From the NCBI GenBank assembly GCA_016188865.1, contig JACPGX010000002.1, positions 2,398 through 66,397 on the forward strand: 64,000 nucleotides of DNA. The letters run 5' to 3'. This DNA comes from Candidatus Nealsonbacteria bacterium. GTDB taxonomy: Bacteria > Patescibacteriota > Minisyncoccia > Minisyncoccales > MHMH01. The first letter of the stretch is position 1; every line of letters begins with the position of its first letter. A model generated the notes under the pieces. The model saw nothing but the letters and a program-made list of their open reading frames with translations. It was not told the DNA's origin and searched no databases. The translations under genes were made by a program, and so were the position numbers. This document shows, in pieces, positions 3,811 through 63,587 of this stretch.

Positions 3811-3815
3811 TCTAT

Positions 3816-7192: not shown

Positions 7193-8344
7193 CTAAAGTT
7201 TGCCAACTAAAATATCTTTTCTGATTTTTTGCATTAAACCGAGAGTGAAATAAAGATTATGAATAGTGGCTAATCTATAATATAGGAGTTCTTTGGCTCT
7301 AAAAAGATGCGATAAATAAGCCCGGGTGAAATTTTGACAGGTATAACAACCGCACTTCTTCTCAATGGCATGGAAATCTTTAATATATCGGGAATTTCCT
7401 ATATTCAAGCGGCCATTTTTTATCAGTAAAGTTCCTCTTCTGGCTAATCTTGTGGGCCAGACGCAATCAAATAGATCCATACCGTGCTTTACGCAATTTT
7501 CCAAATCTTCCGGCCGGCCTATACCCAAAAGATGGCGAGGTTTTTCTTCAGGCAATAATGGCGTAATCCACTTTAAAATTTTAAACATGTCTTTTTGTGT
7601 TTTTCCCAAAGAACCGCCAATGCCAATGCCATCAAAAGGCAAGGATGAAATGAATTTAGTGCTTTCTTCTCTTAAATCTTTATACTCTCCGCCTTGGATT
7701 ATCCCAAACAAAGCCTGTTCCCGCTTTTTTTTAACCTTTAAGCACCGCAAGGCCCAATTATGCGTTTTTTTTAAAGATTTTTTAGTATATTCATAATCAG
7801 CTAAAGGAGAGGTGCATTCGTCAAAGGCAAAAATAATATCGGCTCCCAAATCTTCTTGTATTTTAATGGATTTTTCCGGAGTAAAAATATGCTTTGAGCC
7901 GTCTAAATGAGAGGTAAATTCTACGCCATCGTCAGTAATTTTTACCAATTTAAGAGGTCCGACCTCCCGAGGAGGTCGGACCTCCTCATATCCCGGAAAC
8001 CACCCAATTTTTCCTATCTGGTGTACCTTGCCCCAGCCTAAAGAAAAAACTTGAAAACCTCCGCTGTCAGTAACCATCGGTCCCGGCCAGTTCATGAATT
8101 TATGGAGCCCGCCGGCTTTTTTTATAACATCCGCTCCCGGTCTCAAATAAAGATGATAAGTATTGGCTAAAATAATTTCGGCTCCCAAATTTTTCAAGTC
8201 TTCGGGCGTTAAACTCTTAACGCTGGCTTGCGTAGCTACTGAAACAAAAGCAGGAGTTTCAATCCTGCCGTGAGGCGTCTCTAAAATACCAGCTCTCGCC
8301 CAAGACTTCTTAGATTTTTTAACAATTTTAAATCTAAATTGCAT
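7193..8344 (-). CDS. tgt: Queuine tRNA-ribosyltransferase (tRNA-guanine transglycosylase)
   Basis: TPAFVSVATQASVK, VTDSGGFQVFSL and the C-terminal Zn motif CGCYTC. Confidence 0.9.
   Translation of the reverse strand: MQFRFKIVKKSKKSWARAGILETPHGRIETPAFVSVATQASVKSLTPEDLKNLGAEIILANTYHLYLRPGADVIKKAGGLHKFMNWPGPMVTDSGGFQVFSLGWGKVHQIGKIGWFPGYEEVRPPREVGPLKLVKITDDGVEFTSHLDGSKHIFTPEKSIKIQEDLGADIIFAFDECTSPLADYEYTKKSLKKTHNWALRCLKVKKKREQALFGIIQGGEYKDLREESTKFISSLPFDGIGIGGSLGKTQKDMFKILKWITPLLPEEKPRHLLGIGRPEDLENCVKHGMDLFDCVWPTRLARRGTLLIKNGRLNIGNSRYIKDFHAIEKKCGCYTCQNFTRAYLSHLFRAKELLYYRLATIHNLYFTLGLMQKIRKDILVGKL
7954..7985. repeat. GC-rich palindromic element (short form), in-frame inside tgt
   Basis: GAGGTCCGACCTCC-cga-GGAGGTCGGACCTCC. 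Read on the minus strand it encodes EEVRPPREVGPLK. Confidence 0.85.
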
Positions 8345-19098: not shown

Positions 19099-22000
19099 TT
19101 ATAATTTCTTCACCGCAAGACTAAGTTTTTGCCGATCAACATTTATTTCCTTCTCGCCTTTACCCGGCTTAAAATCCTTAGCCTTAATTTCAGATAAAAT
19201 AAACTTTTTATTTTTACCTAAAATTCTATTTAATTCTGACGCACCGGAATACTGGACAAAAATTTTATCTTTTGGCTTAAAGCCGGCTTCCTTTCTCATC
19301 TCATTAATCTGGCGAATAACTTCTCGAATAATTCCCTCTTCTTTAAGCTCTGGGGTAATTTTCGTATCCAATATTAAAATATTGCTGAAAATAATTTTCT
19401 TGACGTTAACTTCTTCTTTTATGAACTCTGATAAACCTTTCTCCATTTTCTCGGGAATCACAAGAGAAGTTAGGGGTTGGCGAACTTTTATGCCAGTCTT
19501 AGCTCTTTCGGCCAAGGCCAAAGCCACAATTTCCCTGACCCTCGTCATTTTCTGATTTAATTTTTTATTAATCAATTTTTTATTAGCCTTGGGCCAATCA
19601 GCCAAGTGGATACTGCGAGAACGCTTCTCGTAATGACGAGAAACGTTCTCGTAAATTTGCTCGGAGAGGAAAGGAATAAAGGGGGCGGTTAATTTTGAAA
19701 CCGTTTGAAGAACCAAGGTCAGAGTGCCGACAGCTTCGTTAAAACGCTTGCGCGACCTTCTGATATACCACAAAGACAGATCGTTAACCACAAAATCTTC
19801 AATAGCTCTGGCCGCTCCTGTTACGTCGTATTTATCAAGATTATAAGTAGTTTCTGCAATTAACTCATTTAATCGGGAAACCACCCACTTATCTAATAAG
19901 TTTTTAGTTTTTAGTTTATAGTTTGTAGTTTTAATATTATAAGTTTTGTAGAAAGTAAAACAATTCCACAAAATCAAAATAAACTTTTTCAAAGCTTGGT
20001 CTATGTCTTTTTCTGTAAAAAGTTTTGAATCGCCGGACTGATTAACTGTGTAAAAATACCACCTAACAGCGTCGGCGCCATATTTTTCAACAATATACCA
20101 AGGGTCAACGACATTGCCCCTTGATTTTGACATTTTCTCTCCTTTCTCGTCTAAAACATGGCCAGTAGAAATTACATTTTTATAGGGCGCGCCTTTTCCC
20201 AAAAGTGTGGAAACCGCCAAAAGTGTATAGAACCAGCCGCGAGTCTGATCGATAGCCTCTGAAATATAATCAGCTGGAAATATGGCTCCGGAAGCGAACG
20301 GCATACTGCCCGAATCAAACCAAACATCGCAAACTTCCGAAACCCTTGCCATTTTTTCTCCGCATTTAGAGCAATAGAATTTAATTTCATCTATATAAGG
20401 CCGATGAAAATCAACCCTCCCCTCTTTATCCAGGGGTAAATTTTTAAAATCCAGCTTGCGCCACTCTCCGGTCTTTATGTCTTTTTTAGCTAATTTTATT
20501 TTCAATAATTTTTCGTCAGACAAACCCTTGACTGCTCCTTCTAAAAGCCACAATGGATCGCAATGGCTGACAATTAAAATAGTTTTATTTTTATGCTTTT
20601 GATCAATATCGCTTATAAAGCTCATCATTCTTTTTCTAACTTCGCCCCAATTTTCCCCGCCTTCGGGCTTTCTCCCGTAAAAACTGTCTACGCTTTTCGG
20701 AAAATCTTTAAAATATTTTTCTTTCTTTTTACCCTGATAAATGCCAAAATTCATATCTCTTAAGCGCATATCAGAAATTATTTCTGCGCCAAGTTCTTCA
20801 TTAACGAGCTGGGCTGTCTGACGGGTTCTGTTCATATCTGAAAAATAAATTATATCTATTTTCTTTATTTTAAGTTCTTTAGCGGCTTTTCTTACATCGC
20901 TCTCCCCACCCTTGCTTAATAATATGGGACTTTTTTCCGGCCAAGGATAAATATAATCTCCATTATTAACCTGATGGTTATTTTGGCCGTGCCGCATAAT
21001 ATAATATTTATTGGCTGAAAATTTTTGACCCAATAAATCATTTTTACCACCGATAACTTCCTTGAGCCCGCAACTCTGACAGCTCCAAATCGGCAAAGGT
21101 GTTCCCCAATATCTCTCTCGGGAAAAAGCCCAATCTTTCAGTTCTTTTAGCCACTCGCCGAATCTCCCGTCTTTTAAATGCGAGGGCACCCAATTGATTT
21201 TTTGGTTGTTGCCGATCAGGTCTTTTTTTACGTCCTGCATTTTTATAAACCAGCTCTCTTTGGCGTAATAAAGAAGCGGCGATTTGCAGCGCCAGCAGAA
21301 AGGATAATCATGCTCGTATAATTCTTCTTTAAAAAGAACTCCCCTCTCCTGCAGGTCTTTAATAATCAACGGGTCCGCATCTTTAACAAACATTTCATTC
21401 CACTCATAATCCGGCGTTATCATTTTGCCTTCTTCATTAACGGTCACTAATACTGGCAAATTATTCTCTTTTCCTACCTTCATATCATCCTCGCCAAAAG
21501 CCGGAGCAATATGCACCAAACCTGTACCGTCTTCCATGGAAACAAAATCGCCGGCAACTACGCGATATTTCGATGTCCGACCTCCCGACAAATCTGACGG
21601 GAGATCGGACATCCCAAATATCCGTTCATATTCTAATCCAATTAAGTCCCTACCCTTAAATTCTCCAACGATTTCTCCAACTATGCCGACTGGCTTCATT
21701 CTATCTTTAGCTAAAATCAGATATTCCTCACCAACTTTTATTTTTACATAAGTAAATTCCGGGTTTACCGCTACCGCAACATTCCCGGGCAAAGTCCAGG
21801 GCGTCGTCGTCCACACGAGCAAAGAAGAGTCCTTGAATTTTAAATTTTTAATCTTAAATCTTACATAAATTGAATTTTCTTCAATTCTTTTGTACCCCTG
21901 CGCCACTTCATGGGAAGACAAACTTGTCCCACACCTCGGACAATACGGCACTACTTTGTAATCTTTGTACAAAAGCCCTTTTTGATAAATTTGTTTTACT

Positions 22001-22573: not shown

Positions 22574-23068
22574 TTACTTGCGAAGAAAACGGAAGACCAA
22601 TAATCTGTCGGAATCAAAAAAATTGTTAGAAAATATTAAACCGCTACTGAGCCAAAATATCGAAACATCGCGCTCCATGCAGAATATGCCTCGGCGACCA
22701 TACGGATCGTCAGGAATAAGAATCGGTTCCATGGCGATTGGCAACCAGTCGTTTTTAGGCTGGTCTGGATACTGCTCGCGCAGAGCGGGGCCAACTTCGC
22801 TTGGGCATCTTTGAAGGCCATTCTCTAGAGCGCAATTGCAAATGACATCAAAGTGCGCATATCCTTCAAGGCCCAGTTCCCGACTCGTCGCAAGCACCAA
22901 ATCCACCTCTATCGCTTCTTGACTAATCGGAATTTTATCGAAAAACTGATCAGCGTGGTAGTAGCGAATGCGATACTTCCTGCCCCTGAGGACCCTGCGG
23001 TACTCCTCGGATGATTTATGAAGGCCGAGCTTGATTGTTCTCCAAATCTTGAATTTGGAAGTTATCAT
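22574..23068 (-). CDS. Conserved hypothetical protein (visibly GC-richer than its neighbours)
   Basis: 164-aa ORF with GGAGG RBS. The segment ELGLEGYAHFDVICNCALENGLQRCPSEVGPALREQYPDQPKNDWLPIAMEPI resembles a widespread uncharacterised family that I cannot name. Confidence 0.5.
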   Translation of the reverse strand: MITSKFKIWRTIKLGLHKSSEEYRRVLRGRKYRIRYYHADQFFDKIPISQEAIEVDLVLATSRELGLEGYAHFDVICNCALENGLQRCPSEVGPALREQYPDQPKNDWLPIAMEPILIPDDPYGRRGIFCMERDVSIFWLSSGLIFSNNFFDSDRLLVFRFLRK

Positions 23069-23160
23069 TAACGTTTCCTCCTTTCAAAGAGCAACTTTAA
23101 CTTTAAAATGATAGCATATTCTAATTTTTCTATCAAATTATTTTAGTATAAAAACTAAAT

Positions 23161-23194
23161 ACGTATGAATTAAACTATGGTTTTTTTCATACGT
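23161..23194. promoter_or_regulatory. CCATGG-type long palindrome (copy L1), abutting the stop of the PaaX-like gene
   Basis: ACGTATGAATTAAACTATGGTTTTTTTCATACGT, with outer arms ACGTATGAA / TTCATACGT. Confidence 0.6.
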
Positions 23195-23196
23195 AA

Positions 23197-23769
23197 TTAT
23201 ATTTTAAAAATTTCCCTTAGAAAATCATCATTTTCTATATTCTCGGCGGTGATTAAACGAACTTCGCGCTGTCCCAACCCAAAGAACTCCCTCAATAACT
23301 CTACCTCATCTTTGCAGGGATAAGGATTAATCCAAACGCTTTTCTGCAAAGGCAAAAAACCTAATTCCCTTAATTTTCCCCTGAAAGCATTCCGTTGTAG
23401 ATTTTTAAGCTGAATGATATCAAAAATTACTATTCGCCATTTTTTATCCCATTTTTTCGGCTTATTTATATTCAAACTGTCAATTTGAAACCTGCCGGCC
23501 AATTTTCTCCCTTTTTCCGTCAAAGAAATATAAATTTGATGATTTTTATTTATAATTTTAATACATCCTTGCCTTCTAAGATTATAAAAGGTGTCGGAAA
23601 CTTTTTTCGCTTTATACTTGTCTTTATTTTGAAATCCTTTAATAATATTCGTGGCAAAATGGGGAGAGGTAGCAGCGATGCAAACCGCACCGGCAACGGC
23701 CAGCCACTTAAAAACATCTTTGGTGATTTCTGATTTCGGTTTTCTAAAATAATATTTATATTTACTCAT
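23197..23769 (-). CDS. PaaX-like / Cas2-fold domain protein with N-terminal hydrophobic segment and wHTH-like middle (paralogue 1)
   Basis: KWRIVIFDI...LRNAFRGKLRELGF.PLQKSVWINPY resembles the Cas2-like ferredoxin-fold core of PaaX-family proteins. Paralogue at 62063..62635. Confidence 0.6.
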   Translation of the reverse strand: MSKYKYYFRKPKSEITKDVFKWLAVAGAVCIAATSPHFATNIIKGFQNKDKYKAKKVSDTFYNLRRQGCIKIINKNHQIYISLTEKGRKLAGRFQIDSLNINKPKKWDKKWRIVIFDIIQLKNLQRNAFRGKLRELGFLPLQKSVWINPYPCKDEVELLREFFGLGQREVRLITAENIENDDFLREIFKI

Positions 23770-23777
23770 AGTCTAAT

Positions 23778-23813
23778 AACGTATGAATAATACCATGGTT
23801 TTATTCATACGTT
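23778..23813. promoter_or_regulatory. 36-bp near-perfect palindrome (copy R1), 9 nt upstream of the PaaX-like start: candidate operator
   Basis: AACGTATGAATAATACCA|TGGTTTTATTCATACGTT, with one mismatch between the half-sites. Confidence 0.65.
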
Positions 23814-23845
23814 ATTTTATATTACTATATTAACGGGCTTTAATC

Positions 23846-23901: not shown

Positions 23902-25413
23902 CTACATTTTCTCCGGAGCGGAAATACCCATAAGAGAAAGGGTATTCTTTAAAACGATTTGGGTTGCTAACGACAGGGCTAAGCGGGCTTGAGTTAAATT
24001 TTTATCCTCGGAAATCACGTGGCAATCTCTGTAAAATTGATGGAAAACAGTCGCTAACTCCATTGCGTATTGAGGCAACCTTTGAAGCTGGTAATCCTTG
24101 GCAGTATCTTCAATAACTTCCGGCAATTTAATCAGCTGTTTAATTAAATCCAATTCACTTGCATGCGTTAATAATTTCACGTTTTCGGATTTCGGATTTC
24201 GGATTTCGGATTTCGCCAAAATACTGCATATTCTTGCGTGAGCGTATTGAACATAATATACCGGGTTTTTCTCCGACTGCTCTTTTGCCAAATCCAAATC
24301 AAAATTCAAATGGCTGTCATGGCTGCGGGTTAAAAAAAAGAATCGGGCAACATCCAATGAAACTTCTTCGATAAGTTCATCAATAGTTACGAATACTCCA
24401 GTCCTTTTAGACATTTTAACTTCTTTGCCAGCCTCAATTAACCTTACTAACTGATAGACAATCGGAGTAATTTTTTCTTTATCATATCCTAATGCCTGTG
24501 CTGCGGCCTTCAAGCGAGGGACGTAGCCGTGATGCTCTGCCCCTAAAAAAATTACTAACCAATCAAATCCTCTTCCAAATTTATTTTTTAAATAAGCGAT
24601 GTCAGAAAGGAAATAAGTTTCTTCTTCATAGGTCGTTTTCTTTTCCGCCCTAACCAAAACTCGATCTTTATCGTCGCCAAATTCCGTAGATTTAAACCAA
24701 ATAGCTCCATCTTTTTCATAAACAAGGCCTTTTTTCTTTAAAAAACCGGAAACTTGTTTTGCTTCTTTGGGATATAAAGATGTTTCATAAAACCATTTGT
24801 CAAATTTAATTCCCATTATTTTTGCCGTATTTTCTATTTTTTTAACAATATACTTTACTGCTTTATCAATGTCTTTTTCGCCTTTTTTAATCAACTTTTC
24901 GGTATATTCATTTTTATAGCCCTGCTTTCCCTCAAGAGTATCCTGCAGAACCTTAATTTGCCTGCCCCGGTCGTTAACATAGTATTCACGCCAAACCCTG
25001 TATCCGGCTTTATTAAAAACATTGGCTAAAACATCTCCGCAAAAGCCGCCTCGCGCATTGCCAACGTGAAGAGGGCCGGTAGGATTGGCTGAAATAAATT
25101 CCACGTTTACTTTTTTATTTTGGCCAATTTTTAAATTACCGAAATTATTTTTTTGTTTTAAAATTTCTCTGACCTGCTTTTGCAGATACTCTTTGGAAAT
25201 AAAAAAGTTAATGAAGCCGGGGCCGGCTGCTTCAACTTTTTCAAAAAGATTGGATTTCAGTTTGTTGATTATTTCTTTCGGGTCTTTTTTTAATCTAAAG
25301 GCGATGTTGGTTGAATAATCTCCATATTTTTTATCTTCCGGAGTTTCCAGTCTGACATCCTCTTCTCCGGTTGCTTTTTGAACCAATTTTACTATTTCTT
25401 GACGTATCATCAC
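23902..25413 (-). CDS. argS: Arginyl-tRNA synthetase
   Basis: SANPTGPLHVGNARG (HIGH region), the MSKRTG variant of KMSKS, and C-terminal YVQYAHARICSI. Confidence 0.95.
   Translation of the reverse strand: MMIRQEIVKLVQKATGEEDVRLETPEDKKYGDYSTNIAFRLKKDPKEIINKLKSNLFEKVEAAGPGFINFFISKEYLQKQVREILKQKNNFGNLKIGQNKKVNVEFISANPTGPLHVGNARGGFCGDVLANVFNKAGYRVWREYYVNDRGRQIKVLQDTLEGKQGYKNEYTEKLIKKGEKDIDKAVKYIVKKIENTAKIMGIKFDKWFYETSLYPKEAKQVSGFLKKKGLVYEKDGAIWFKSTEFGDDKDRVLVRAEKKTTYEEETYFLSDIAYLKNKFGRGFDWLVIFLGAEHHGYVPRLKAAAQALGYDKEKITPIVYQLVRLIEAGKEVKMSKRTGVFVTIDELIEEVSLDVARFFFLTRSHDSHLNFDLDLAKEQSEKNPVYYVQYAHARICSILAKSEIRNPKSENVKLLTHASELDLIKQLIKLPEVIEDTAKDYQLQRLPQYAMELATVFHQFYRDCHVISEDKNLTQARLALSLATQIVLKNTLSLMGISAPEKM
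24183..24217. repeat. Heptanucleotide tandem repeat (TTTCGGA x4 plus 1 degenerate unit) inside argS
   Basis: tttcgga x4 then tttcgcc. Encodes AKSEIRNPKSEN. The same unit occurs in the archease gene. Confidence 0.9.
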
Positions 25414-25521: not shown

Positions 25522-25833
25522 GTGGAAAGTATAATTGTCATACTCGTAGTTGCAGTTTCGTTTTTCATCATACCTATAGTCGTATTAATAGCAAACCAAA
25601 CTCATCCTAAGCCCAAGAAACCAAAAATCCTCTATTACAGACGGGAGCCAAATCCTAATGCTAGCTGGGATATTGCAAACCCCTATGACTACATTCCCGT
25701 TTATGAAGAGCAGAACGACAAAAATGTTTTAATCAACCCCTGGGAACCGGTGGATATTCCGAAAGAAAAAAGCGATAAACAAAATCACCCAATCAATCCC
25801 TGGGAAAAGAAAGTTTTGGAGGCAGGAAAATGA
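25522..25833 (+). CDS. Tail-family protein P1: single-pass membrane protein ending in the double-NPWE tail
   Basis: GTG start. One N-terminal TM followed by KPKKPK (tail predicted cytoplasmic). C-terminus is INPWEPVDIPKEKSDKQNHPINPWEKKVLEAGK. Stop overlaps the P2 start (ATGA). Confidence 0.65.
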   Translation: MESIIVILVVAVSFFIIPIVVLIANQTHPKPKKPKILYYRREPNPNASWDIANPYDYIPVYEEQNDKNVLINPWEPVDIPKEKSDKQNHPINPWEKKVLEAGK

Positions 25834-26327
25834 AACAAGATAGTGTTTTAACCGAAATGATTATAAAATTGTTAATAATTCTCTATAAAATATTTATTTT
25901 TTGGCCAATAAGGATTATCATTGCGCTTATTTACTACTTTATTCTTTACCCCTGGTTGGCTGCAATAAATGGTAAAGGCATAGATCCTCCCTTTGAAGCT
26001 TTAGCTTTGGATGATATGGATAGTTGTATATGCGCGCTCGTGGCGGACTTTTTTGTGATGATAACGATGATAATTATGCTGTACCAGAGTGCTCTTTGGG
26101 CGCCATTGGGCTATTTTATCTTCCGATTATTTTCTTATTTAGTTCCGTTGGCTTACTGCAAAGTGAAAGAGGAACAAATTTCTCTCCAGTCGCAACCCAA
26201 ACCTCAAGTGCAGTCTCAACCCAAGGCAACCAACCCCTGGGAGCCGGTGGATATTCCGAAAGAAAAAAATGATAAACAAAATCCCCCGATTAATCCATGG
26301 GAAAAGAAAGTTATAGAAATTAACTAA
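25830..26327 (+). CDS. Tail-family protein P2: multi-pass membrane protein ending in the double-NPWE tail
   Basis: Three to four TM segments. C-terminus is TNPWEPVDIPKEKNDKQNPPINPWEKKVIEIN. Confidence 0.7.
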   Translation: MKQDSVLTEMIIKLLIILYKIFIFWPIRIIIALIYYFILYPWLAAINGKGIDPPFEALALDDMDSCICALVADFFVMITMIIMLYQSALWAPLGYFIFRLFSYLVPLAYCKVKEEQISLQSQPKPQVQSQPKATNPWEPVDIPKEKNDKQNPPINPWEKKVIEIN

Positions 26328-26331
26328 CAAA

Positions 26332-26351
26332 GAGCCTCAACAAAGAGGCTC
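26332..26351 (+). terminator. Hairpin after P2 (GAGCCTC / GAGGCTC), duplicated after P3
   Basis: Same hairpin and flanks as 26852-26873. The T-run is weak. Confidence 0.4.
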
Positions 26352-26369
26352 CTTAATCAGCTGGACGGA

Positions 26370-26398
26370 TTGAACGAATGGGTGCGGGTGTATATTGT
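26370..26398 (+). promoter_or_regulatory. Putative promoter of P3 (TTGAAC-N17-TATTGT)
   Basis: TTGAACgaatgggtgcgggtgtaTATTGT, 30 nt upstream of the 26429 ATG. Confidence 0.35.
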
Positions 26399-26428
26399 AA
26401 TGTTGTACAAGAAATGAAGGGGGAAAGG

Positions 26429-26848
26429 ATGAATAATTCAGAATTATTGAGGGTAGTCACTGAAAGAACTAGGAGCGGGAAACTTCAGTGGCTTCAAAGG
26501 AAAAATACGTGGTGGTGTGATGTACGGCATGCTGAATTTGAATGTTATGGTTTGTCGCTGATATACTACCCCACATCTACCCCCTCGGATTTATGCCTGC
26601 GCATTGAGAATTACCAAAAATATATTGAATTAAGAGATAGAGGGTTCCGATTTTTTTCAAAACCAATTCATAAATTGTACGATCTGATCCGATATAAAAA
26701 TTTAATCCCGCCACAAACACTAAATCCGCATTCCAAAGATAGGCCTCAAGATCTTAATGTTTGGGAACCGGTCAATATCCCAAAAACTGCCAAAGAAAAA
26801 ATAGAAATCATCAACCCCTGGGAGAAGAAAGTGGCGGAAATCAACTAA
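26429..26848 (+). CDS. Tail-family protein P3: soluble protein ending in the double-NPWE tail
   Basis: ATG at 26429 preceded by GGGGGAAAGG. The track's 26378 start lacks an RBS. C-terminus is LNVWEPVNIPKTAKEKIEIINPWEKKVAEIN. Confidence 0.65.
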   Translation: MNNSELLRVVTERTRSGKLQWLQRKNTWWCDVRHAEFECYGLSLIYYPTSTPSDLCLRIENYQKYIELRDRGFRFFSKPIHKLYDLIRYKNLIPPQTLNPHSKDRPQDLNVWEPVNIPKTAKEKIEIINPWEKKVAEIN

Positions 26849-26851
26849 CAA

Positions 26852-26880
26852 AGAGCCTCAATAAAGAGGCTCTTTAAATT
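26852..26880 (+). terminator. Hairpin terminator after P3 (AGAGCCTC / GAGGCTCT)
   Basis: Duplicate of the P2 hairpin, followed by TTTAAATTTTT. Confidence 0.45.
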
Positions 26881-44854: not shown

Positions 44855-44863
44855 CGGATTTAG

Positions 44864-44906
44864 GGAGGTCCGACCTCCACTCAAATTTGAGAGGAGATCG
44901 GACCTC
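44864..44906. repeat. 43-nt palindromic element, intergenic copy (EndoQ / Mth938-like spacer)
   Basis: GGAGGTCCGACCTCC-ACTCAAATTTGAGA-GGAGATCGGACCTC. Confidence 0.9.
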
Positions 44907-44914
44907 TTTTGTCT

Positions 44915-49316: not shown

Positions 49317-49326
49317 TTTAATATTA

Positions 49327-49369
49327 GGAGGTCCGACCTCCACTCAAATTTGAGAGGAGGTCGGACCTC
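49327..49369. repeat. 43-nt palindromic element, intergenic copy (10 nt upstream of the tRNA-Arg 5' end)
   Basis: GGAGGTCCGACCTCC-ACTCAAATTTGAGA-GGAGGTCGGACCTC. Confidence 0.9.
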
Positions 49370-49453
49370 TCGCCATCTTTACAAATTAAAATATCTATGA
49401 TATACTCTATTGTATAGTAGCTTAAAAACTCGGCCCTGGAAAGGAGCTTTAAG

Positions 49454-51460: not shown

Positions 51461-53017
51461 ATGAATACTGCCGAAATAATGATTATGGAAATTATGAAAA
51501 ACCGGCTGAAAACTCCGGAGGATTTGGCATCTGTAAAAAGGAAAATGTCAAAAAAATACAAAGTCCCCTGTCCCAGCAATATTAAACTGTTAGAAACTTA
51601 CCGTAAAATGCTTGAGAATAAAAAAATTAAAAAAACTCCGCTGATTGAAAAATTACTGCGAACCCGGCCGGTAAGATCGCTTTCCGGCATTGTAAACATT
51701 TCGGTTTTAACCAAACCCTACCCTTGCCCCGGAAAATGTATTTATTGTCCCACCGAAAAAGGCATTCCCAAAAGCTATGTCTCCGGAGAACCAGCCGTAG
51801 AAAGAGCAAAAAAATTAAATTTTGACCCCTATTTACAGGTAAAAAAAAGAATTGAAACCTTGGAAATGGAAGGCCACCCTACGGATAAAATAGAGCTGCG
51901 CATAGTTGGTGGAACATGGTCTTATTACCCAAAAAAATACCAGGAATGGTTCATCAAGCGCTGCTTTGAATCTTGCAATAATGGTCGGACGTCGGGTTTC
52001 CGACCAACTCAGAGGTTCAATGAGCGAGCTCGGCACCGTATTGTCGGACTATCTATAGAAACTAGACCAGACTTTATAAATCTCGGCGAGATTAAATGGC
52101 TTAGAGAACTTGGCGTAACAATGGTTGAGCTGGGGGTTCAATCAATTTACGACGATGTTTTAAAATTCAATAATCGCGGCCATGGGGTGAAGGAGATAAG
52201 CGAGGCCACCAAACTCTTAAAAAATGCTGGCTTCAAAATCCTTTATCAAATGATGCCCAATCTGCCCGGCTCAACTTCAACTCGTGATTTAAAAATGTTC
52301 GGAGAACTGTCCTCTGATTTTCGATTTAAGCCAGATTTATTAAAAATATATCCGTGTGCTTTAGTTAAAGGAGCGCCGCTTTACAAATTATGGAAAAATA
52401 AAAAATATAAACCGTATACTGAAAAACAACTAATAAATTTAGTGAAATCAATCAAAAAAATCATCCCCTATTATGTGAGGATACAAAGAATCACCAGAGA
52501 CATTCCTTCTCATAGCATAGCGGCCGGGCCTGCAAAAATATCAAATTTACGGCAAATAGTTTCCGGTAATTGTAAGTGCATCCGCTGCCGGGAAGTGGGG
52601 GCAAATTACGATCCCAAGGAAAAATTATATTTATTCCGCCAAGATTACAACGCCTCCGGCGGCAAGGAGATTTTTTTATCTTTTGAAAACAAAAATCGAA
52701 GCAAACTTTACTCCCTACTCCGCCTTCGTCTATGTAACGGGTCGTACCAGTTACATGGGGCAGTTATCCGGGAGCTTCACACTTACGGCCAATCGCTAGA
52801 GGTCTGGCATCCCTCCAAATTTGGGGGAGGTCGGACCTCTCCCTCTCCGCAACACAAGGGATTGGGGAGAAAACTCATCAAAGAGGCGGAAAAAATCTCC
52901 GAAAAAGAATTCGGCTTTAATAAAATTACGGTAATTTCCGGTATCGGCGCAAGAGATTACTATCGAAAACTCGGCTATAGACTGGAAAATACTTATATGG
53001 TAAAAAAATTAAGATAG
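51461..53017 (+). CDS. elp3: Elp3-like radical SAM plus GNAT tRNA-modification enzyme
   Basis: Radical-SAM cluster motif CPGKCIYCP, ELGVQS, and a C-terminal GNAT region (QHKGLGRKLIKEAEKI). Confidence 0.85.
   Translation: MNTAEIMIMEIMKNRLKTPEDLASVKRKMSKKYKVPCPSNIKLLETYRKMLENKKIKKTPLIEKLLRTRPVRSLSGIVNISVLTKPYPCPGKCIYCPTEKGIPKSYVSGEPAVERAKKLNFDPYLQVKKRIETLEMEGHPTDKIELRIVGGTWSYYPKKYQEWFIKRCFESCNNGRTSGFRPTQRFNERARHRIVGLSIETRPDFINLGEIKWLRELGVTMVELGVQSIYDDVLKFNNRGHGVKEISEATKLLKNAGFKILYQMMPNLPGSTSTRDLKMFGELSSDFRFKPDLLKIYPCALVKGAPLYKLWKNKKYKPYTEKQLINLVKSIKKIIPYYVRIQRITRDIPSHSIAAGPAKISNLRQIVSGNCKCIRCREVGANYDPKEKLYLFRQDYNASGGKEIFLSFENKNRSKLYSLLRLRLCNGSYQLHGAVIRELHTYGQSLEVWHPSKFGGGRTSPSPQHKGLGRKLIKEAEKISEKEFGFNKITVISGIGARDYYRKLGYRLENTYMVKKLR
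51983..52005. repeat. Short GGTCGGA...TCCGACC hairpin inside elp3 (possible degraded palindromic element)
   Basis: GGTCGGACGTCGGGTTTCCGACC encodes NGRTSGFRPT. It shares the GRTS reading with other copies. Confidence 0.45.
52799..52840. repeat. Palindromic element (left arm degenerate), in-frame inside elp3
   Basis: GAGGTCTGGCATCCCTCCAAATTTGGGGGAGGTCGGACCTCT. Encodes LEVWHPSKFGGGRTS in the linker before the GNAT motif. Confidence 0.7.
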
Positions 53018-53041
53018 CACCTTGCCATAAAGGAGGCTGTG

Positions 53042-53896
53042 ATGAAAGAGATAAAGACTGTCGGAGTGGTTGGGGCTGGCACAATGGGCCAGGGTATTGC
53101 TCAAATTTGCGGCCAAAAGGGCTTTGTTACGCTTATCCATGATATTGACCGCACCAGGCTCATAAAAGGATCTAATAATATAACAGAAAATCTATACAAG
53201 CTGCGCGACAAAGGCAAAATTACTCAAGAAGAGTGGAACGCCATGGCTGGCAGAATGTATGTTGCTTACGATTTAGAAAACTTAAAAACTGCTGATTTGG
53301 TTATTGAAGCTATTGTCGAAAAGGAAGCGGCGAAAATGGCTTTGTATAAACAATTGAGTGTAATTTGCCCGGAAAAAACAATTTTTGCCACAAACACCTC
53401 ATCAATCTCAATCACCAAACTGGCGAACGCTACAAAAAGGCCAGAAAAATTTATCGGCATTCATTTTATGAATCCTGCGACGATAATGCCGCTGATCGAA
53501 GTCATCAAGGGCTTGCGTACATCGGAAGAAACATTGCAAGCTGCCATGGATTTTTGCAGAAAACTTGATAAAACGCCTCTTTTATCCAACGACTCGCCCG
53601 GGTTCATTGTCAATAGAATCTTAATGCCGATGATTAATGAAGCAATTTTTGCTTTCCAGGAAGAAGTGGCTGATGCTAAAACCATAGATGAAGCAATGAA
53701 ATTGGGCACTAATCAAAAAATGGGGCCGCTGGAACTAGCTGATTTTATCGGACTGGATATTTGTTTGGCCATAATGGAAACTCTCTATCGTGATCTTAAT
53801 AATCCTAAATATCAACCGTGCCCGCTTCTTAGGAAATATGTTGCTGACGGATTCTTGGGCAGAAAAACTGGAAAAGGATTTTATGAATATAAATAA
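53042..53896 (+). CDS. hbd: 3-hydroxybutyryl-CoA / 3-hydroxyacyl-CoA dehydrogenase
   Basis: [18 protein letters not shown]-binding motif, HFMNPA, and GFIVNRIL. Confidence 0.9.
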
Positions 53897-53936
53897 AAAT
53901 AGAAAAGGAGTGATTTTTCAATCACTCCTTTTTTGT

Positions 53937-55103
53937 TTATTCGTTTCCAAAAGCAGAAATGCCGGTAATATCTTTTCCAATAATCAAGAGATGGATATTA
54001 TGCGTTCCTTCGTAAGTAGAAACTGCTTCCAAGTTCATCATATGCCTGACAATTCTGTGATCCAGATGAATGCCATTGGCTCCCAGTAAATCTCTGGCAT
54101 CCCGGGCGATTTTCAGGGCGTGATAAACATTATTCATTTTAGCCATTGATATTTGCTGATGGCGCTCCTTGCCCTCATCCTCCAATCTGCCTAATTGAAG
54201 CGCCAATAATTGACCCTTGGTAATTTCAGTAAGCATTTCTACCAGACTTTTTTGAACCAGCTGAAATGACGCTATGGGTTTGCCAAATTGCTTTCTTTGT
54301 TTGGTGTAATTCAAGGCTATTTCATAACATTCAATAGCTGCCCCTAAAGCTCCCCAGGCAATACCGTAACGAGCTTCATTCAAACACATTAGGATAGCTT
54401 TTAATCCTTCAGCTTTGGGCAGCATATTCTTTTCAGGGACGGCGACATTATCCAAAATCAACTCCGAAGTGACTGAAGCTCTTAAAGACATCTTGCCTTT
54501 GATATCAACAGCCGAAAATCCTTCCATGCCTTTTTCCACCAAAAAACCCCTTATGCCTTTTTGAGTTTTTGCCCAGACAATAGCCACATCGGCAATACTG
54601 CCATTGGTAATCCACATTTTAGTTCCGTTGAGAATATAGTTCTCCCCGTCTTTTTTAGCCGTGGTTTTCATGCTGGCGGGATCGGAACCAGCGTCAGGCT
54701 CGGTTAAGCCAAAACAGCCGATTTTTTCTCCTGAAGCCAGTTTTGGCAGCCAAAAATTTTTCTGTTCTTCAGAACCAAAAGTTTCAATCGGATACATCAC
54801 TAAAGAATTAGTCACGGAAACAAAACTTCGCAATCCGCTGTCGCCTCTTTCTAATTCTTGGCAAACCAGTCCGTAAACCATATTACTGGCTCCCGGACAG
54901 CCGTAGCCTTGAGTTTTTATTCCCAAAAGGCCAAGCTGGGCAAGCTGCGGGATAATCTCCCTTGGAAAGCGATCTTTCTCAAAACAGTCCTTAATAATTG
55001 GCAGATAATTTTTACCTACCCACTTCTGCACTTCATCTCTTATATTTTTTTCATCTTCAGAAAGCGAATCATTTATTCCATAGTAATCAGTCGCCATTCG
55101 CAC
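53937..55103 (-). CDS. Acyl-CoA dehydrogenase (glutaryl-CoA dehydrogenase-like)
   Basis: CFGLTEPDAGSD, the ACAD middle beta-domain, and C-terminal YEGTHNIH. Confidence 0.85.
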   Translation of the reverse strand: MRMATDYYGINDSLSEDEKNIRDEVQKWVGKNYLPIIKDCFEKDRFPREIIPQLAQLGLLGIKTQGYGCPGASNMVYGLVCQELERGDSGLRSFVSVTNSLVMYPIETFGSEEQKNFWLPKLASGEKIGCFGLTEPDAGSDPASMKTTAKKDGENYILNGTKMWITNGSIADVAIVWAKTQKGIRGFLVEKGMEGFSAVDIKGKMSLRASVTSELILDNVAVPEKNMLPKAEGLKAILMCLNEARYGIAWGALGAAIECYEIALNYTKQRKQFGKPIASFQLVQKSLVEMLTEITKGQLLALQLGRLEDEGKERHQQISMAKMNNVYHALKIARDARDLLGANGIHLDHRIVRHMMNLEAVSTYEGTHNIHLLIIGKDITGISAFGNE

Positions 55104-57000: not shown

Positions 57001-57049
57001 TACTTTATTCTAACAAAAAAAGCCGCCATAAGCGACCGCCGAAATATCC

Positions 57050-57093
57050 GGAGATCCGATCTCCTCTCAAATTTGAGTGGAGATCGGATCTCC
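57050..57093. repeat. 44-nt palindromic element, intergenic copy in inverted orientation with compensatory arm substitutions
   Basis: GGAGATCCGATCTCC-TCTCAAATTTGAGT-GGAGATCGGATCTCC. Confidence 0.9.
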
Positions 57094-57099
57094 CGAATA

Positions 57100-60990: not shown

Positions 60991-61398
60991 TCAAACATCA
61001 AATAGCACGGTTGCTTCAAAAAGTCCATCTTTATTTTTACGAATATCTAATCCGTGATAAGTGACGGCCTTGATATCTTCGCCGAATATATCAACTTTAT
61101 GACCGGAGAGCCCGGCCTCCAATCCCGTATCAGAGAATTTCTTGAATTTTATTTTATCGTAAACCTCTTTGTTCGTTTGAATCAAATACAAAATCTCGTT
61201 CAAAAAATCCACCAACAACGCATTTAAATCCAATGATTTTACTTTGATGTTTCGGATTTCGGATTTCGTGCTTCGGATTTCCGGCCGAAGGCCGGCTATC
61301 ATTCCCAGCATCGCATTCAAAAACAGCTCTTCTTTGGTTTTAGCCCAAACCCTAATCTTAAAATCTCCTGTATGTTCTAAAACTGCATACTGCTTCAT
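60991..61398 (-). CDS. Archease (RtcB activator)
   Basis: LEHTGDFKIRVWAKTKEELF N-terminus and VTYHGLDI near the C-terminus. Confidence 0.85.
   Translation of the reverse strand: MKQYAVLEHTGDFKIRVWAKTKEELFLNAMLGMIAGLRPEIRSTKSEIRNIKVKSLDLNALLVDFLNEILYLIQTNKEVYDKIKFKKFSDTGLEAGLSGHKVDIFGEDIKAVTYHGLDIRKNKDGLFEATVLFDV
61250..61284. repeat. Heptanucleotide tandem repeat (TTTCGGA-type, 5 units) inside the archease gene
   Basis: tttcgga tttcgga tttcgtg cttcgga tttccgg. Encodes PEIRSTKSEIRNIK. Same unit as in argS. Confidence 0.85.
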
Positions 61399-61469
61399 AT
61401 ATTTTTATGTTATCAATTGCTGTTATTGACATCAAGCTGAATTAAGTTAATCTCTAAATAACGAGGGAG

Positions 61470-61961
61470 GTGATCATTGAAATGATGGATAAAGAATCTT
61501 TAAGAAAACAATTTACGGAGAGAGAGCCGTTTGCTCGATTGCTTAAGATAAGACTCTTGAATTTAATTGATGGCCGCGCCGAAATGGAGCTTCTCGTCAC
61601 GTCTCGTTTATTAAACGCGAACAACGTGGTTATGGGCGGGGTGATAGTCGTCTTAGCGGATATGGCAGCACCCTACGCAGCGATGACTTTACTCAATAAT
61701 GACGAAGTGCTCGCAACAATTCGGGCAAGTGTAAAATTTATCAAGCCAATAATACTCCAAGATAATGGATTAATAGCAATAGCATTAGCTGGAAAACTCA
61801 AACTTGAAAAAGATGACAAACAGCGAATCCAAAAAATAATAGATGTTAAAGTAGAAATTATTTCCAAAAAAACTAATGCCCAAAAAGCTCTTTATGGGGG
61901 AACTTTCTTGGTTTTACCTAAACTCATAATGAAAAAAATTATCGAGCGAGAACAGAGTTAA
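61470..61961 (+). CDS. PaaI-type hotdog-fold thioesterase
   Basis: NANNVVMGGVIVVLADMA core pattern. The start codon is uncertain (GTG at 61470 or ATG at 61482). Confidence 0.7.
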   Translation: MIIEMMDKESLRKQFTEREPFARLLKIRLLNLIDGRAEMELLVTSRLLNANNVVMGGVIVVLADMAAPYAAMTLLNNDEVLATIRASVKFIKPIILQDNGLIAIALAGKLKLEKDDKQRIQKIIDVKVEIISKKTNAQKALYGGTFLVLPKLIMKKIIEREQS

Positions 61962-61994
61962 TATAAAAAGGTGACGAAATCGTCACCTTTTTTA
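61961..61994. repeat. Terminator hairpin, left copy of a 34-nt duplication flanking the PaaX-like cassette
   Basis: ATATAAAAAGGTGACGAAATCGTCACCTTTTTTAT. Repeated at 62703-62736 with only the loop changed (AAA versus TTT). Confidence 0.85.
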
Positions 61995-62028
61995 TTCCAA
62001 AATCTGCCAAAAAATTAAATATCTAAAT

Positions 62029-62064
62029 AACGTACAATTCAAACCATGGTTTCAATCTTACGTT
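62029..62064. promoter_or_regulatory. CCATGG-type 36-bp palindrome (copy L2), overlapping the stop of PaaX-like paralogue 2
   Basis: AACGTACAATTCAAACCA|TGGTTTCAATCTTACGTT. Confidence 0.6.
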
Positions 62065-62635
62065 ATTGTATTTTGAAAATTTTTCTTAGGGGACTGTCGT
62101 CTCCCATGTTTTCGGCGGTAATTAAGCGAATCTCCTTTTCGCTCAAGCCGAAAAAATCTCTCAGGAGGTCTATCTCATCCTTACAGGGATAGGGGTGGAC
62201 CCAAACACTTTTTTGAAGAGGACAAAAACCCAATTCTTTCAATTTACCCCTGAAGGCATTGCGTTGCAGATTTTTAAGCTGGGCGATGTCAAAAATTACT
62301 ATTCTCCATTTCTTGTCCCATTTTTTAGGTTTATTGATTTTCAGGCTATCAATCTGGAATATTTCCGCTATCTTTTTTCCTCTATCGGTTAGAGAAATAT
62401 AAATTTGGTGGTTCCTTTCTTTTGCAATAATACACCCCTGCTTTTTAAGATTATAAAAGGCGTCGTAAACTTTTTTTCTTTTATATTCTGGCTTCTTCAA
62501 ATTCTTCACCAAATTAATAGTGAAATATGGGGAGCCAGCTGCGATACAAACCGCGCCAGCTGCTGCCAGCCCCTTTAAAATATCTTTGGCAATCTCCGAC
62601 CTTGGTTTTGCAAAATAATATTTATATTTACTCAT
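62063..62635 (-). CDS. PaaX-like / Cas2-fold domain protein (paralogue 2)
   Basis: Aligns end to end with 23197..23769 with a single one-residue indel. Most positions are identical, including KWDKKWRIVIFDI.QLKNLQRNAFRGKL.ELGF.PLQKSVW. Confidence 0.6.
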   Translation of the reverse strand: MSKYKYYFAKPRSEIAKDILKGLAAAGAVCIAAGSPYFTINLVKNLKKPEYKRKKVYDAFYNLKKQGCIIAKERNHQIYISLTDRGKKIAEIFQIDSLKINKPKKWDKKWRIVIFDIAQLKNLQRNAFRGKLKELGFCPLQKSVWVHPYPCKDEIDLLRDFFGLSEKEIRLITAENMGDDSPLRKIFKIQ

Positions 62636-62664
62636 ATTTAATAATTATAACACAATGGCATGAC

Positions 62665-62700
62665 GACGTAAATTTGCAACCATGGTGTGAATTGTACGTT
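62665..62700. promoter_or_regulatory. CCATGG-type 36-bp palindrome (copy R2), upstream of PaaX-like paralogue 2
   Basis: GACGTAAATTTGCAACCA|TGGTGTGAATTGTACGTT. The right half-site matches the L2 left half-site. Confidence 0.55.
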
Positions 62701-62702
62701 AA

Positions 62703-62736
62703 ATATAAAAAGGTGACGATTTCGTCACCTTTTTTA
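62703..62736. repeat. Terminator hairpin, right copy of the 34-nt duplication
   Basis: ATATAAAAAGGTGACGATTTCGTCACCTTTTTTAA, directly after the korB stop. Confidence 0.85.
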
Positions 62737-62738
62737 AT

Positions 62739-63587
62739 TTATGATTGATTAATTTTTCTTATTCTTTCAAGATAACCCTCTCTTTCTGGCGCCCTGTAAA
62801 TAATTCCGTAATATGGCCTTTCTTTCAAAGCGACTTCCACCAGCTTTCTGGCCAAATCTTTATTGCCGGGATCATGAAGCCACTTTTCGCCATTGGGCAG
62901 CTCAATTATTTCTCCTTCTTTGAGATAGCAGCAATTTTGCTTTAAGTGAGAAATCCAATCCCCTTCCTGAAAAGAAACGCACTGGCTTTGCACATTAACG
63001 AAAGAAAAACCCTTATACGTTATCGCCGCTTTAAGTATTCCCACCAAATGCGGCACATTGGTAGCCAACCCCTGCGCAAGGAAACCCGTGCCGAATGTCA
63101 ACATATCCAGCAACGGGTCAACCGGCGGATTCAAACTATGGGAAGTTAAAATATCTTCCTTGTAGGGAGTAGTCGGGCTTGTCTGGCCTTTAGTCATGGC
63201 GTAAACCTGATTATCAAGCATGATGCAGGCAATATCAACATTTCTTCTGACTGCATGCGGCAAATGCTCAGTGCCGATGCTGAATAAATCCCCGTCTCCG
63301 CCGATAGCCAACACCGTCAAATCCAACCCCAAGCTCTCTGCGGCAAGTTTTGCTCCCTGGCTGATAGGCAAAGCCCTCCCGTGAATCCCGTTAATGCCGT
63401 AAGTTTTCAAATAACCCACTACCCTGGAAGAGCAGCCAATGCCGGTAGCAACAAATAGTTTATGGTTGGGAATTTTAAGTTCGGAAAATGTTCTAGCTAA
63501 GGCGCTTAGGAAGCCGTAGTCTCCGCAGCCCGGGCACCAAATAGGCTTCAGCTCATTGAGATAGCATTTGGGATCGCACTCTGTCAT
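62739..63587 (-). CDS. korB: 2-oxoacid:ferredoxin oxidoreductase, beta (TPP-binding) subunit
   Basis: WCPGCGDYG N-terminal motif and the GDGD TPP-binding motif (IGGDGDLFSIG). Confidence 0.9.
   Translation of the reverse strand: MTECDPKCYLNELKPIWCPGCGDYGFLSALARTFSELKIPNHKLFVATGIGCSSRVVGYLKTYGINGIHGRALPISQGAKLAAESLGLDLTVLAIGGDGDLFSIGTEHLPHAVRRNVDIACIMLDNQVYAMTKGQTSPTTPYKEDILTSHSLNPPVDPLLDMLTFGTGFLAQGLATNVPHLVGILKAAITYKGFSFVNVQSQCVSFQEGDWISHLKQNCCYLKEGEIIELPNGEKWLHDPGNKDLARKLVEVALKERPYYGIIYRAPEREGYLERIRKINQS

Follow-up and report, generated by a model that had tools for sequence, protein, structure and literature searches.

A 64 kb stretch of a metagenome-assembled genome of Candidatus Nealsonbacteria (Patescibacteria), hereafter the window, contains two nearly identical hairpin-forming sequences, named repeat R1, on the two sides of a gene for a PaaX_M protein, at the junction between a hotdog-fold thioesterase gene and the convergent korB gene. 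The two hairpins are real, a scar that local recombination left at a junction prone to rearrangement. Their origin is tentatively attributed, at somewhat less than an even chance, to one unequal or illegitimate recombination, which would have set two alternative occupants of the same slot in tandem. A sequence-only reading of the window had proposed that the PaaX-like gene and its palindromes (cassette 2, related to a cassette 1 elsewhere in the window) had been inserted as a mobile element into a terminator shared by the two outer genes. The duplication of an ancestral terminator at a single-hairpin site is upheld by the analysis reported here; the mobile-element interpretation is not.

The features of the locus are reported below, with window coordinates, strand and supporting evidence; R2 is a second, shorter repeat. 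On the plus strand they follow each other as R2b, thioesterase, hairpin 1, 20-nt joint, R2a with its palindrome, PaaX, palindrome, hairpin 2 and korB, a layout that reads as two tandem units of R2, gene and hairpin. Profile matches confirmed the thioesterase, korB and PaaX-like gene calls of the sequence-only reading.

60991-61398, minus strand: archease gene (Pfam Archease, 102.7 bits; synteny with the relatives L009, L010, L093, L094 and L104)
61446-61463, minus strand: R2b, CGTTATTTAGAGATTAAC, between the thioesterase ribosome-binding site and the archease promoter
61482-61961, plus strand: thioesterase gene, hotdog fold, PaaI/4HBT-like (Pfam 4HBT and TIGR00369)
61957-61994, no strand: R1 copy 1, including hairpin 1, core at 61965-61992 (repeat search, RNA fold, A-tract lead and T-tract tail)
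61995-62014, no strand: 20-nt junction from hairpin 1 to R2a, read from the sequence; putative role discussed below
62015-62032, minus strand: R2a, CGTTATTTAGATATTTAA, end of the downstream palindrome and its flank
62028-62063, no strand: downstream CCATGG-centred palindrome (inverted-repeat search)
62063-62635, minus strand: gene for the PaaX_M protein, paralogue 2, 190 aa, winged helix and Cas2-like domain (PF20803, 69.1 bits)
62644-62672, minus strand: promoter-like site of the PaaX-like gene, TTTACG-17-TGnTATAAT (10/12 matches, extended -10)
62666-62701, no strand: upstream CCATGG-centred palindrome, putative operator (inverted-repeat search)
62698-62736, no strand: R1 copy 2, including hairpin 2, core at 62707-62734 (repeat search, RNA fold, homologous hairpins in L009, L010, L102 and L008)
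62739-63587, minus strand: korB, beta subunit of 2-oxoacid:ferredoxin oxidoreductase, thiamine pyrophosphate-dependent (profile matches)

The 28-nt core of R1 (A5-GGTGACG-loop-CGTCACC-T5) was searched in the window allowing up to 3 mismatches, and only the sites at 61965-61992 and 62707-62734 were found, with no match expected from 100 shuffles. Read as a direct repeat, GTTAA-TAT...TTTTTTA (61957-61994) against GTTAAATAT...TTTTTTA (62698-62736), the copies are 38 and 39 nt long and show 36 matches, 2 mismatches, both in the loop, and one indel in the flank. The two 34-mers originally noticed next to the thioesterase and korB stop codons are both found exactly where they had been placed, are alike except for the loop, and are part of this longer repeat. 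Between the copies lie the 190-aa PaaX_M gene, its two palindromes and a 33-nt spacer. The same arrangement, with the same loop orientations, is found in independent assemblies from at least five sequencing runs, and the duplication is therefore not an assembly artefact. A scan of the JGI metagenomes for the 26-nt hairpin core gave no match.

The 4-nt loops, AAAT in copy 1 and ATTT in copy 2, differ at 2 nt, and the cores of the two copies are exact reverse complements of each other, just as a flipped loop, suggested in the sequence-only reading, would look. Within a 46-nt frame the direct reading gives 36 matches and the inverted one 35 (own count): the immediate flanks and the lengths of the A5 and T6 tracts favour the direct orientation, the loop favours the inverted one. 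The loops of the homologous hairpin pair in the relative L013 agree in the direct orientation, which was taken to support a direct repeat. In L009, the loop is a perfectly palindromic GAATTC, and those of the window, GAAATC and GATTTC, are mirror images, each one substitution away from it. The difference may have arisen by two mirror-image single substitutions from GAATTC, as allelic divergence of two haplotypes, or by one template-switch inversion of the loop. Loop-only inversion by template switching is documented for 4-nt, partly self-complementary loops (PMC8794818, PMC8604942). The present case is alike in that such a loop is reversed on an unchanged stem; it differs in that paralogous copies are compared, rather than ancestor and descendant, and two point changes fit equally well.

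By their anatomy, both hairpins are predicted to be bidirectional intrinsic terminators and probably terminate transcription in vivo. They feature 12 paired positions, 5 G-C pairs, a 4-nt loop and A5 and T5-6 tracts. As RNA, hairpin 1 folds at -16.6 and -17.2 kcal/mol on the two strands (z of -6.7 and -5.6) and hairpin 2 at -18.2 kcal/mol on either strand, z ranging over both hairpins from -5.6 to -7.5. From either outer gene the sense sequence is the same, AAAAAGGUGACGAAAUCGUCACCUUUUU, and starts 3-4 nt past the stop codon, the distance from stop to core being 3 nt between thioesterase and hairpin 1 and 4 nt between korB and hairpin 2. The PaaX-like gene reaches hairpin 1 only 70 nt on, and hairpin 1 would end both the thioesterase transcript (plus strand) and the PaaX-like one (minus strand). 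The two elements resemble the bidirectional Rho-independent terminators of convergent genes in their 7-bp G+C-rich stem (12 bp with the A/T tracts), 4-nt loop, A-tract and T-tract, location 3-6 nt past convergent stops and equal folding on both strands; unlike those, the same sequence occurs twice, 0.74 kb apart, around a co-directional gene, and the function is here predicted from sequence. A common terminator family, which would have spoken against the sequence-only reading, was ruled out: seven A-tract/T-tract hairpins were found in the window, these two included, and the stems of the other five are unrelated. A known RNA family was also considered and rejected, since no Rfam family reached the gathering score in 61300-62900 and sub-threshold matches were driven by the terminator hairpin.

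A second duplicated terminator is found in the window at 25522-26877, where three tandem paralogous small open reading frames (ORFs) have common ...NPWEPVDIPKEK... ends and near-identical terminator hairpins (26332-26351 and 26850-26875) are located 3' of two of the three; this duplication clearly results from tandem gene duplication.

The junction was compared with those of relatives, identified as KorB homologues at 68-73% identity and traced to contigs. In this set korB is the left-hand anchor of a variable junction, and archease (within archease-MatE-RtcB) is its conserved right-hand anchor. The arrangements are as follows.

L009: korB, AAAAAAGGTGACGAATTCGTCACCTTTTT, convergent putative metalloprotease gene, archease
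L010: korB, AAAAGGTGACAATCAAGTCGCCTTTTT, archease; the slot is empty
L102 and L093: korB, hairpin, convergent gene (putative metalloprotease class), palindrome-PaaX-palindrome, archease
L008: korB, hairpin, two small ORFs (DUF2283 and a 66-aa ORF), second copy of the hairpin
L103 and L104: unrelated terminators; in L104, a solo CCATGG palindrome and no PaaX gene before archease

L102 ends with korB and its hairpin, and L093, from the same sample, starts with the same 30 nt; the two presumably join. The hairpin at the 3' end of korB is conserved in four of the six nearest relatives (L009, L010, L102 and L008), the korB TGA stop lying inside the stem in L102, L010 and L008. Exactly one homologous hairpin is present in L009 and L010, where the junction lacks the cassette. 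Since relatives carry a homologous single hairpin at the korB 3' end, copy 2, on the korB side, represents the ancestral korB terminator, from which hairpin 1 was derived as a copy. The single-hairpin empty site foreseen by the sequence-only reading was thus found, in genomes whose KorB is only ~70% identical to that of the window; loss of the cassette is as possible as its insertion. In L009, korB and a convergent gene, here the putative metalloprotease, do share one terminator, as had been postulated for korB and the thioesterase; this part of the proposal stands apart from the insertion built on it, which is not supported. The slot may be empty (L010) or be occupied by the putative metalloprotease (L009), by a gene of the metalloprotease class together with PaaX (L102/L093), by a solo palindrome (L104) or by a toxin-antitoxin-like pair (L008), and the junction is a rearrangement hot spot.

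Some of these relatives show further features. In L008, a ~70-nt direct duplication (3793-3862 and 4431-4500, ~85% identity), running from the final 12 nt of korB through the hairpin into the downstream flank, surrounds a different insert, composed of two minus-strand small ORFs (DUF2283, 80 aa, and the 66-aa ORF) with a toxin-antitoxin-like look. The solo 46-nt CCATGG palindrome of L104 (2535-2580) is located between the korB terminator and the archease promoter, and could be either a deletion remnant or an operator for a regulator encoded elsewhere; the PaaX downstream palindrome of L093 has the same position relative to archease. L093 also contains, at 925-941, a half-hairpin relic, GTCGCCCTTTTATATTA, recognized by comparison with L010.

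The second repeat, R2 (CGTTATTTAGAKATT), at 62015-62032 and 61446-61463, matches at 14 of 15 ungapped positions (p ~0.001 against shuffles and ~0.005 against genome windows); homology out to ~45 nt was considered and is not claimed, the alignment being ambiguous. R2a would be made up of the end of the downstream palindrome and a remnant of the ancestral junction between this palindrome and the archease promoter. In the orthologous sequence of L093, CGTTATTGCCGATATAAT, the palindrome and an R2-like sequence run directly into archease after 57 nt; 61 nt are left in the window when the block from R2a to R2b is taken out. R2 brackets the thioesterase gene and hairpin 1, and the order of the repeats, R2b, R1 copy 1, R2a, R1 copy 2, is interleaved. 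A single recombination explains both R1 and R2, while a target-site duplication by the cassette explains R1 only. The interleaving suits a tandem junction of two slot alleles, or an insertion of the thioesterase with its hairpin, no less than an insertion of the cassette.

In the proposed mechanism, the ancestral locus would have had the order korB, hairpin, slot, R2/archease promoter, archease. Two versions of it, one with PaaX and one with the thioesterase in the slot, would have recombined to give the present order (korB, hairpin, PaaX unit, R2, 20-nt joint, hairpin, thioesterase, R2, archease), with both repeats and one novel joint, for which the 20-nt junction at 61995-62014 is the candidate. 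In the PaaX-only haplotype (H1) the downstream palindrome would be joined to R2b and archease (...GAATTGTACGTTATTTAGAGATTAACTTAATTCAGC...); in the thioesterase-only haplotype (H2) the korB end and its hairpin would be joined to the end of the thioesterase gene (...ATAAATTAAAAAAGGTGACGAWWTCGTCACCTTTTTATATTAACTCTGTTC...). The event may have been a homology-facilitated integration of DNA from a related strain. Besides the interleaved repeats, a recombination of this kind is supported by the conserved korB-side hairpin, by the variable slot, by the L093 junction, by the archease-adjacent PaaX clade of the window, L013 and L093, by the documented loop inversions, by the parallel ~70-nt duplication at the same junction in L008 and by the tandem duplication of gene and terminator elsewhere in the window (hairpins at 26332 and 26850).

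The mechanism of homology-facilitated illegitimate recombination during transformation was reportedly described by de Vries and Wackernagel in 2002. The locus resembles the additive junctions produced by this process or by unequal crossing-over in its interleaved A-x-B-y-A-z-B order, short novel joint and duplicated flanks; it differs in that no donor haplotype was observed and in that the flanks, 18-38 nt, are short for RecA-dependent anchoring. The term is in use (PMC8116780, PMC3410848).

Several points weigh against this origin. R2 is short, and could be due to chance or be a conserved promoter or operator element. Some 40 nt of sequence are too few to settle whether the hairpin copies are direct or inverted. 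All contigs of the population carry the composite arrangement, and in the collections searched no genome was found with either single-slot haplotype at high identity: a scan of GTDB genomes with KorB gave one distant match only, and exact-protein look-ups with KorB and the thioesterase returned the same population and arrangement only, with no empty-site haplotype. Finally, the event would be old or recurrent, because L013, more distant than L009 (archease identity to the window 56% and 64%, respectively), shares the same layout of hairpin, PaaX, hairpin and convergent gene, with more diverged hairpins and a convergent gene unrelated to the thioesterase. If the event is old, the near-identity of the window copies needs gene conversion or selection; L008 and the half-hairpin relic of L093 hint at recurrence.

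The layout of L013 is the starting point of a distinctly unlikely alternative, in which the arrangement of hairpin, PaaX and hairpin would already have existed in an ancestor shared by the window and L013 genomes, the hairpins having been kept alike by terminator selection and occasional gene conversion. Conversion between palindromic repeats could also flip the loop, and the one-hairpin relatives would have lost the cassette by recombination between the copies. In L013/L094, hairpins of this family likewise flank the orthologous gene on either side, the absence of the cassette from L009, nearer than L013 by archease, would fit a loss, and the solo palindrome of L104 resembles a deletion remnant. 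However, copies within a genome are far more alike (36/38 in the window) than orthologous copies. R2 is near-identical too, and conversion of 18-38-nt tracts 0.55-0.74 kb apart would need to be frequent; conversion is not general, because the L013 copies have diverged.

The mobility of the cassette was evaluated by scoring repeats in the flanks of the family loci, against a control with a mean of 8.2, a 99th percentile of 13 and a maximum of 18. Cassette 2 scores 29, followed by L013 (16), L051 (15), L078 (14), L093 and L090 (12 each); cassette 1, at 9, is near the control mean, and thus lacks the flanking duplication, as already noticed in the sequence-only reading, and all remaining loci stay at or below 10. 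The 95th percentile of the control is exceeded by just three of 31 non-redundant loci (L051, L078 and L090), and about 27 of the 31 are not above control. Of the loci compared, just cassette 2 and its closest relative, L013/L094, have matching hairpins on the two flanks; the earlier suggestion that the element targets hairpins is not supported.

For L051, the repeat is a duplicated promoter, absent as a duplicate from the orthologous loci L042 and L039, which have the cassette. Duplication is not tied to insertion, because L042, without the duplicate, and L051, with it, both carry the cassette. The promoter-like element, ~57 nt long, has a DnaA-box-like TTTTCCACA/TTATCCACA at its start and TGTAAAAT at its end, and lies downstream of the cassette, before a conserved membrane-protein gene, this being its sole position in L039, L042, L043 and L067; in the sublineage of L051, L055 and L033 it is also found upstream (~60-115 nt before the ATG; ~55-110 nt past the stop).

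The genes of the family are conserved in position. The PaaX genes of cassette 2, L013 and L093 form one clade and all adjoin archease(-MatE), and two further genomes have the cassette-2 lineage in this archease/MatE setting; L098 and cassette 1 group together, and both are located between ArgRS and IleRS. The neighbourhood of cassette 1 (22574-23068, compared with L098 4747-4926) includes a variable small-gene slot, with a 164-aa ORF without Pfam match downstream of PaaX in the window and a 59-aa ORF upstream in L098. Neither the cassette nor the 55 of 67 window ORFs scanned yielded a transposase, an integrase or Cas1. Together, the flank scores, the positional conservation, the pattern of promoter duplicates and the lack of a transposase argue against transposition that is encoded by the cassette or typical of the family and makes target-site duplications, a process that is weakly supported here. 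The long target-site duplication of the sequence-only reading is likewise not supported.

An insertion of the cassette (palindrome, gene, palindrome and 33 nt) into a terminator common to korB and the thioesterase is possible, yet unlikely. Either a long target-site duplication or Campbell-type recombination at the hairpin would have made the second copy of ~38 nt, and the cassette may have moved locally, out of the archease-proximal slot that it occupies in L093. Such an event is suggested by the single hairpin that korB has in common with a convergent gene (L009 and, probably, L102/L093), by the 14-nt perfect terminal inverted repeats of the cassette (TAACGTACAATTCA/TGAATTGTACGTTA) and by the closeness of the repeat, which ends 1-5 nt from the upstream palindrome. 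Regulatory DNA in the flanks is duplicated at a few other loci (L013, 16; L051/L055/L033, 15, the promoter copy), and in L093 (12) repeats of 15-16 nt directly abut both palindromes. The same model, however, has to cope with the lack of a transposase or recombinase in the ORFs scanned, with the majority of loci lacking flank repeats above control, with the promoter duplicate present in only one of L042 and L051, and with the conserved position of both window cassettes; it also leaves R2 unexplained.

The locus resembles a transposon with its target-site duplication in having direct repeats around a block with inverted-repeat ends, and a single copy in relatives. It differs in the 38-nt repeat, far longer than typical and beginning 33 nt beyond one end of the block, the downstream palindrome; in addition, no transposase or Cas1 was found, other copies lack the duplication and the gene is conserved in position. 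Those of casposons, which count among the long ones, measure 14-15 bp. An IS200/IS605 element and a group IIC intron were rejected, as there is no ORF for TnpA (Y1), TnpB or reverse transcriptase and, in the above 61300-62900 search, no Rfam match at gathering score. An integron cassette with attC was rejected as well: no integrase was found among the window ORFs scanned, and the stem is perfect, with no bulges.

R2 gives rise to another explanation, in which the thioesterase gene, with a hairpin copy as its 3' terminator, separated the PaaX downstream palindrome from the archease promoter when it was inserted there, and R2 (15-18 nt) was duplicated in the process. The hairpin would have come along with a convergent gene that abutted the korB hairpin in the donor arrangement; this is plausible because every convergent variable gene at the junction abuts such a hairpin, a GGTGAC hairpin being found 3' of the convergent variable gene in all four genomes. 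The block between the two R2 copies consists exactly of the 20-nt joint, hairpin 1 and the thioesterase gene with its ribosome-binding site, and L093 displays the uninterrupted state of palindrome, R2 and archease. The thioesterase itself, for which an alternative GTG start exists at 61470, appears to be a rare, lineage-specific gene, as would befit a newcomer: an exhaustive search of 1.84 billion representatives yielded 5 relatives with E<=1e-10, the top one being 58% identical, and a word-indexed search returned no match besides itself. Its G+C content (37.7% against 40.2 +/- 2.8%) is, on the other hand, not deviant, and a foreign composition was seen for neither the thioesterase nor the cassette. 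Moreover, no donor arrangement with this thioesterase is known, the unrelated convergent gene in the otherwise identical layout of L013 requires replacement or recurrence, the significance of R2 is modest and, had the hairpin not travelled along, R2 alone would be explained. On balance, insertion of the thioesterase is doubtful, though it may have occurred.

The korB-terminator hairpin (AAAAAGGTGAC...GTCACCTTTTT) might also be an att-like capture site, where unrelated small modules integrated repeatedly, with duplication of the hairpin each time; this is held to be very improbable. The candidate modules are the PaaX-like gene (window and L013), the DUF2283 pair (L008) and the putative metalloprotease beside the half-hairpin relic (L093). 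Similarly to integron attC cassettes and Xer/pdif modules, small modules, the L008 pair included, are bracketed by hairpin sequence at one hot spot; the differences are that no IntI or tyrosine recombinase was found in the window, that the stem is perfect, that the gene has its own promoter and that there are two copies only. Sites of the attC type are defined by extrahelical bases. If a capture site did exist, it would mean hairpin-directed cassette capture in Patescibacteria, by a trans-acting recombinase or by template switching during replication, and palindrome-flanked PaaX_M genes might be one class of cassettes.

The protein encoded between the hairpins belongs to a large family. The two paralogues of the window match PaaX_M (PF20803) with 69.1 and 66.3 bits, against a gathering score of 24. 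TIGR02277, the PaaX equivalog, gives 41.9 bits against a cut-off of 264.55 and over residues 41-160 only, which places the protein outside the equivalog. In comparison with PaaX, the repressor of the phenylacetate operon, the protein has the same winged helix and Cas2-like PaaX_M domain and a palindrome by its own promoter; it differs in the lack of the C-terminal PaaX domain, in a conserved hydrophobic N-terminal extension of ~45 aa, in the absence of a paa operon and in the paired 36-nt palindromes on both sides of the gene. Membership in a defence system was rejected, the weak Cas2-like matches being those that the fold would predict. More than 1900 PaaX_M relatives, mostly ~190 aa long and 60-79% identical to the query, were found in Patescibacteria.

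The two palindromes of cassette 2 are 36 nt long and 89% complementary. The -35 box of the PaaX-like promoter falls inside the upstream palindrome, and the predicted mRNA is nearly leaderless. Cassette 1 has its own palindromes at 23158-23200 and 23775-23818. The analysis was extended to 80 metagenome loci of the family, and palindromes, counted over 76 genes, were detected upstream of 57 and downstream of 53, against a background of 3/139. Almost all members of the family have such a pair. The palindromes measure 32-40 nt and are centred on CCATGG or CGATCG, with arms that are gene-specific and alike within a gene; the upstream one has a median distance of 41 nt from its centre to the ATG, and the downstream one lies ~26 nt after the stop codon. 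A literature search for PaaX in Patescibacteria, or for PaaX with 'Cas2-like', found no papers, and the palindrome-bracketed PaaX_M proteins of Patescibacteria apparently form a very large, undescribed family.

The PaaI-family thioesterase (61482-61961) is convergent to the PaaX-like regulator (62063-62635). In E. coli, the paa operon pairs paaI with paaX. The similar pairing at this locus is probably a coincidence, because members of the PaaX_M family elsewhere have no thioesterase neighbour.

Other repeated sequences were observed in the window. Palindromic repeats similar to repetitive extragenic palindromes (GAGGTCCGACCTCC...GGAGGTCGGACCTC), up to 53 nt long and 83-93% alike, are located at 7954-7984, 21564-21616, 44857-44909, 49320-49372, 52813-52841 and 57043-57095, and one diverged copy lies in frame within the IleRS ORF, encoding ...MSDLPSDLSGGRTSK... 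Runs of a TTTCGGA heptamer are found in two unrelated coding regions, ArgRS (24169-24214) and archease (61236-61281), where they encode KSEIRN-type peptides. At the same archease position, relatives have a different repeat, made up of CAACACCCGGTGTT palindromes (L010, 5030-5079; L104, 2745-2776), and the site looks like an in-frame, repeat-tolerant insertion site.

As to the gene content (53039-55103 and L001 1-6004), this Nealsonbacteria contig encodes acyl-CoA dehydrogenase, 3-hydroxyacyl-CoA dehydrogenase and korAB, with sucCD and succinate dehydrogenase subunits just outside the window; its central metabolism is unusually rich for Patescibacteria. A free-standing ORF with a LAGLIDADG homing-endonuclease domain (3816-4898) is located between phosphoribosyltransferase and nucleoside phosphorylase genes.

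The event described here is of an ordinary kind, though unusually clear: a scar left by recombinational duplication at a hot spot. It cautions that a flanking repeat is not always the footprint of a transposon. If the two slot occupants were indeed set in tandem by one recombination, the locus would be a clean, small example of gene gain in streamlined Patescibacteria, by stacking of slot occupants at conserved regulatory DNA, and the duplicated terminator would insulate the new neighbours from one another. The paired-palindrome architecture of the PaaX_M family, a by-product of the analysis, is more novel and may matter more.

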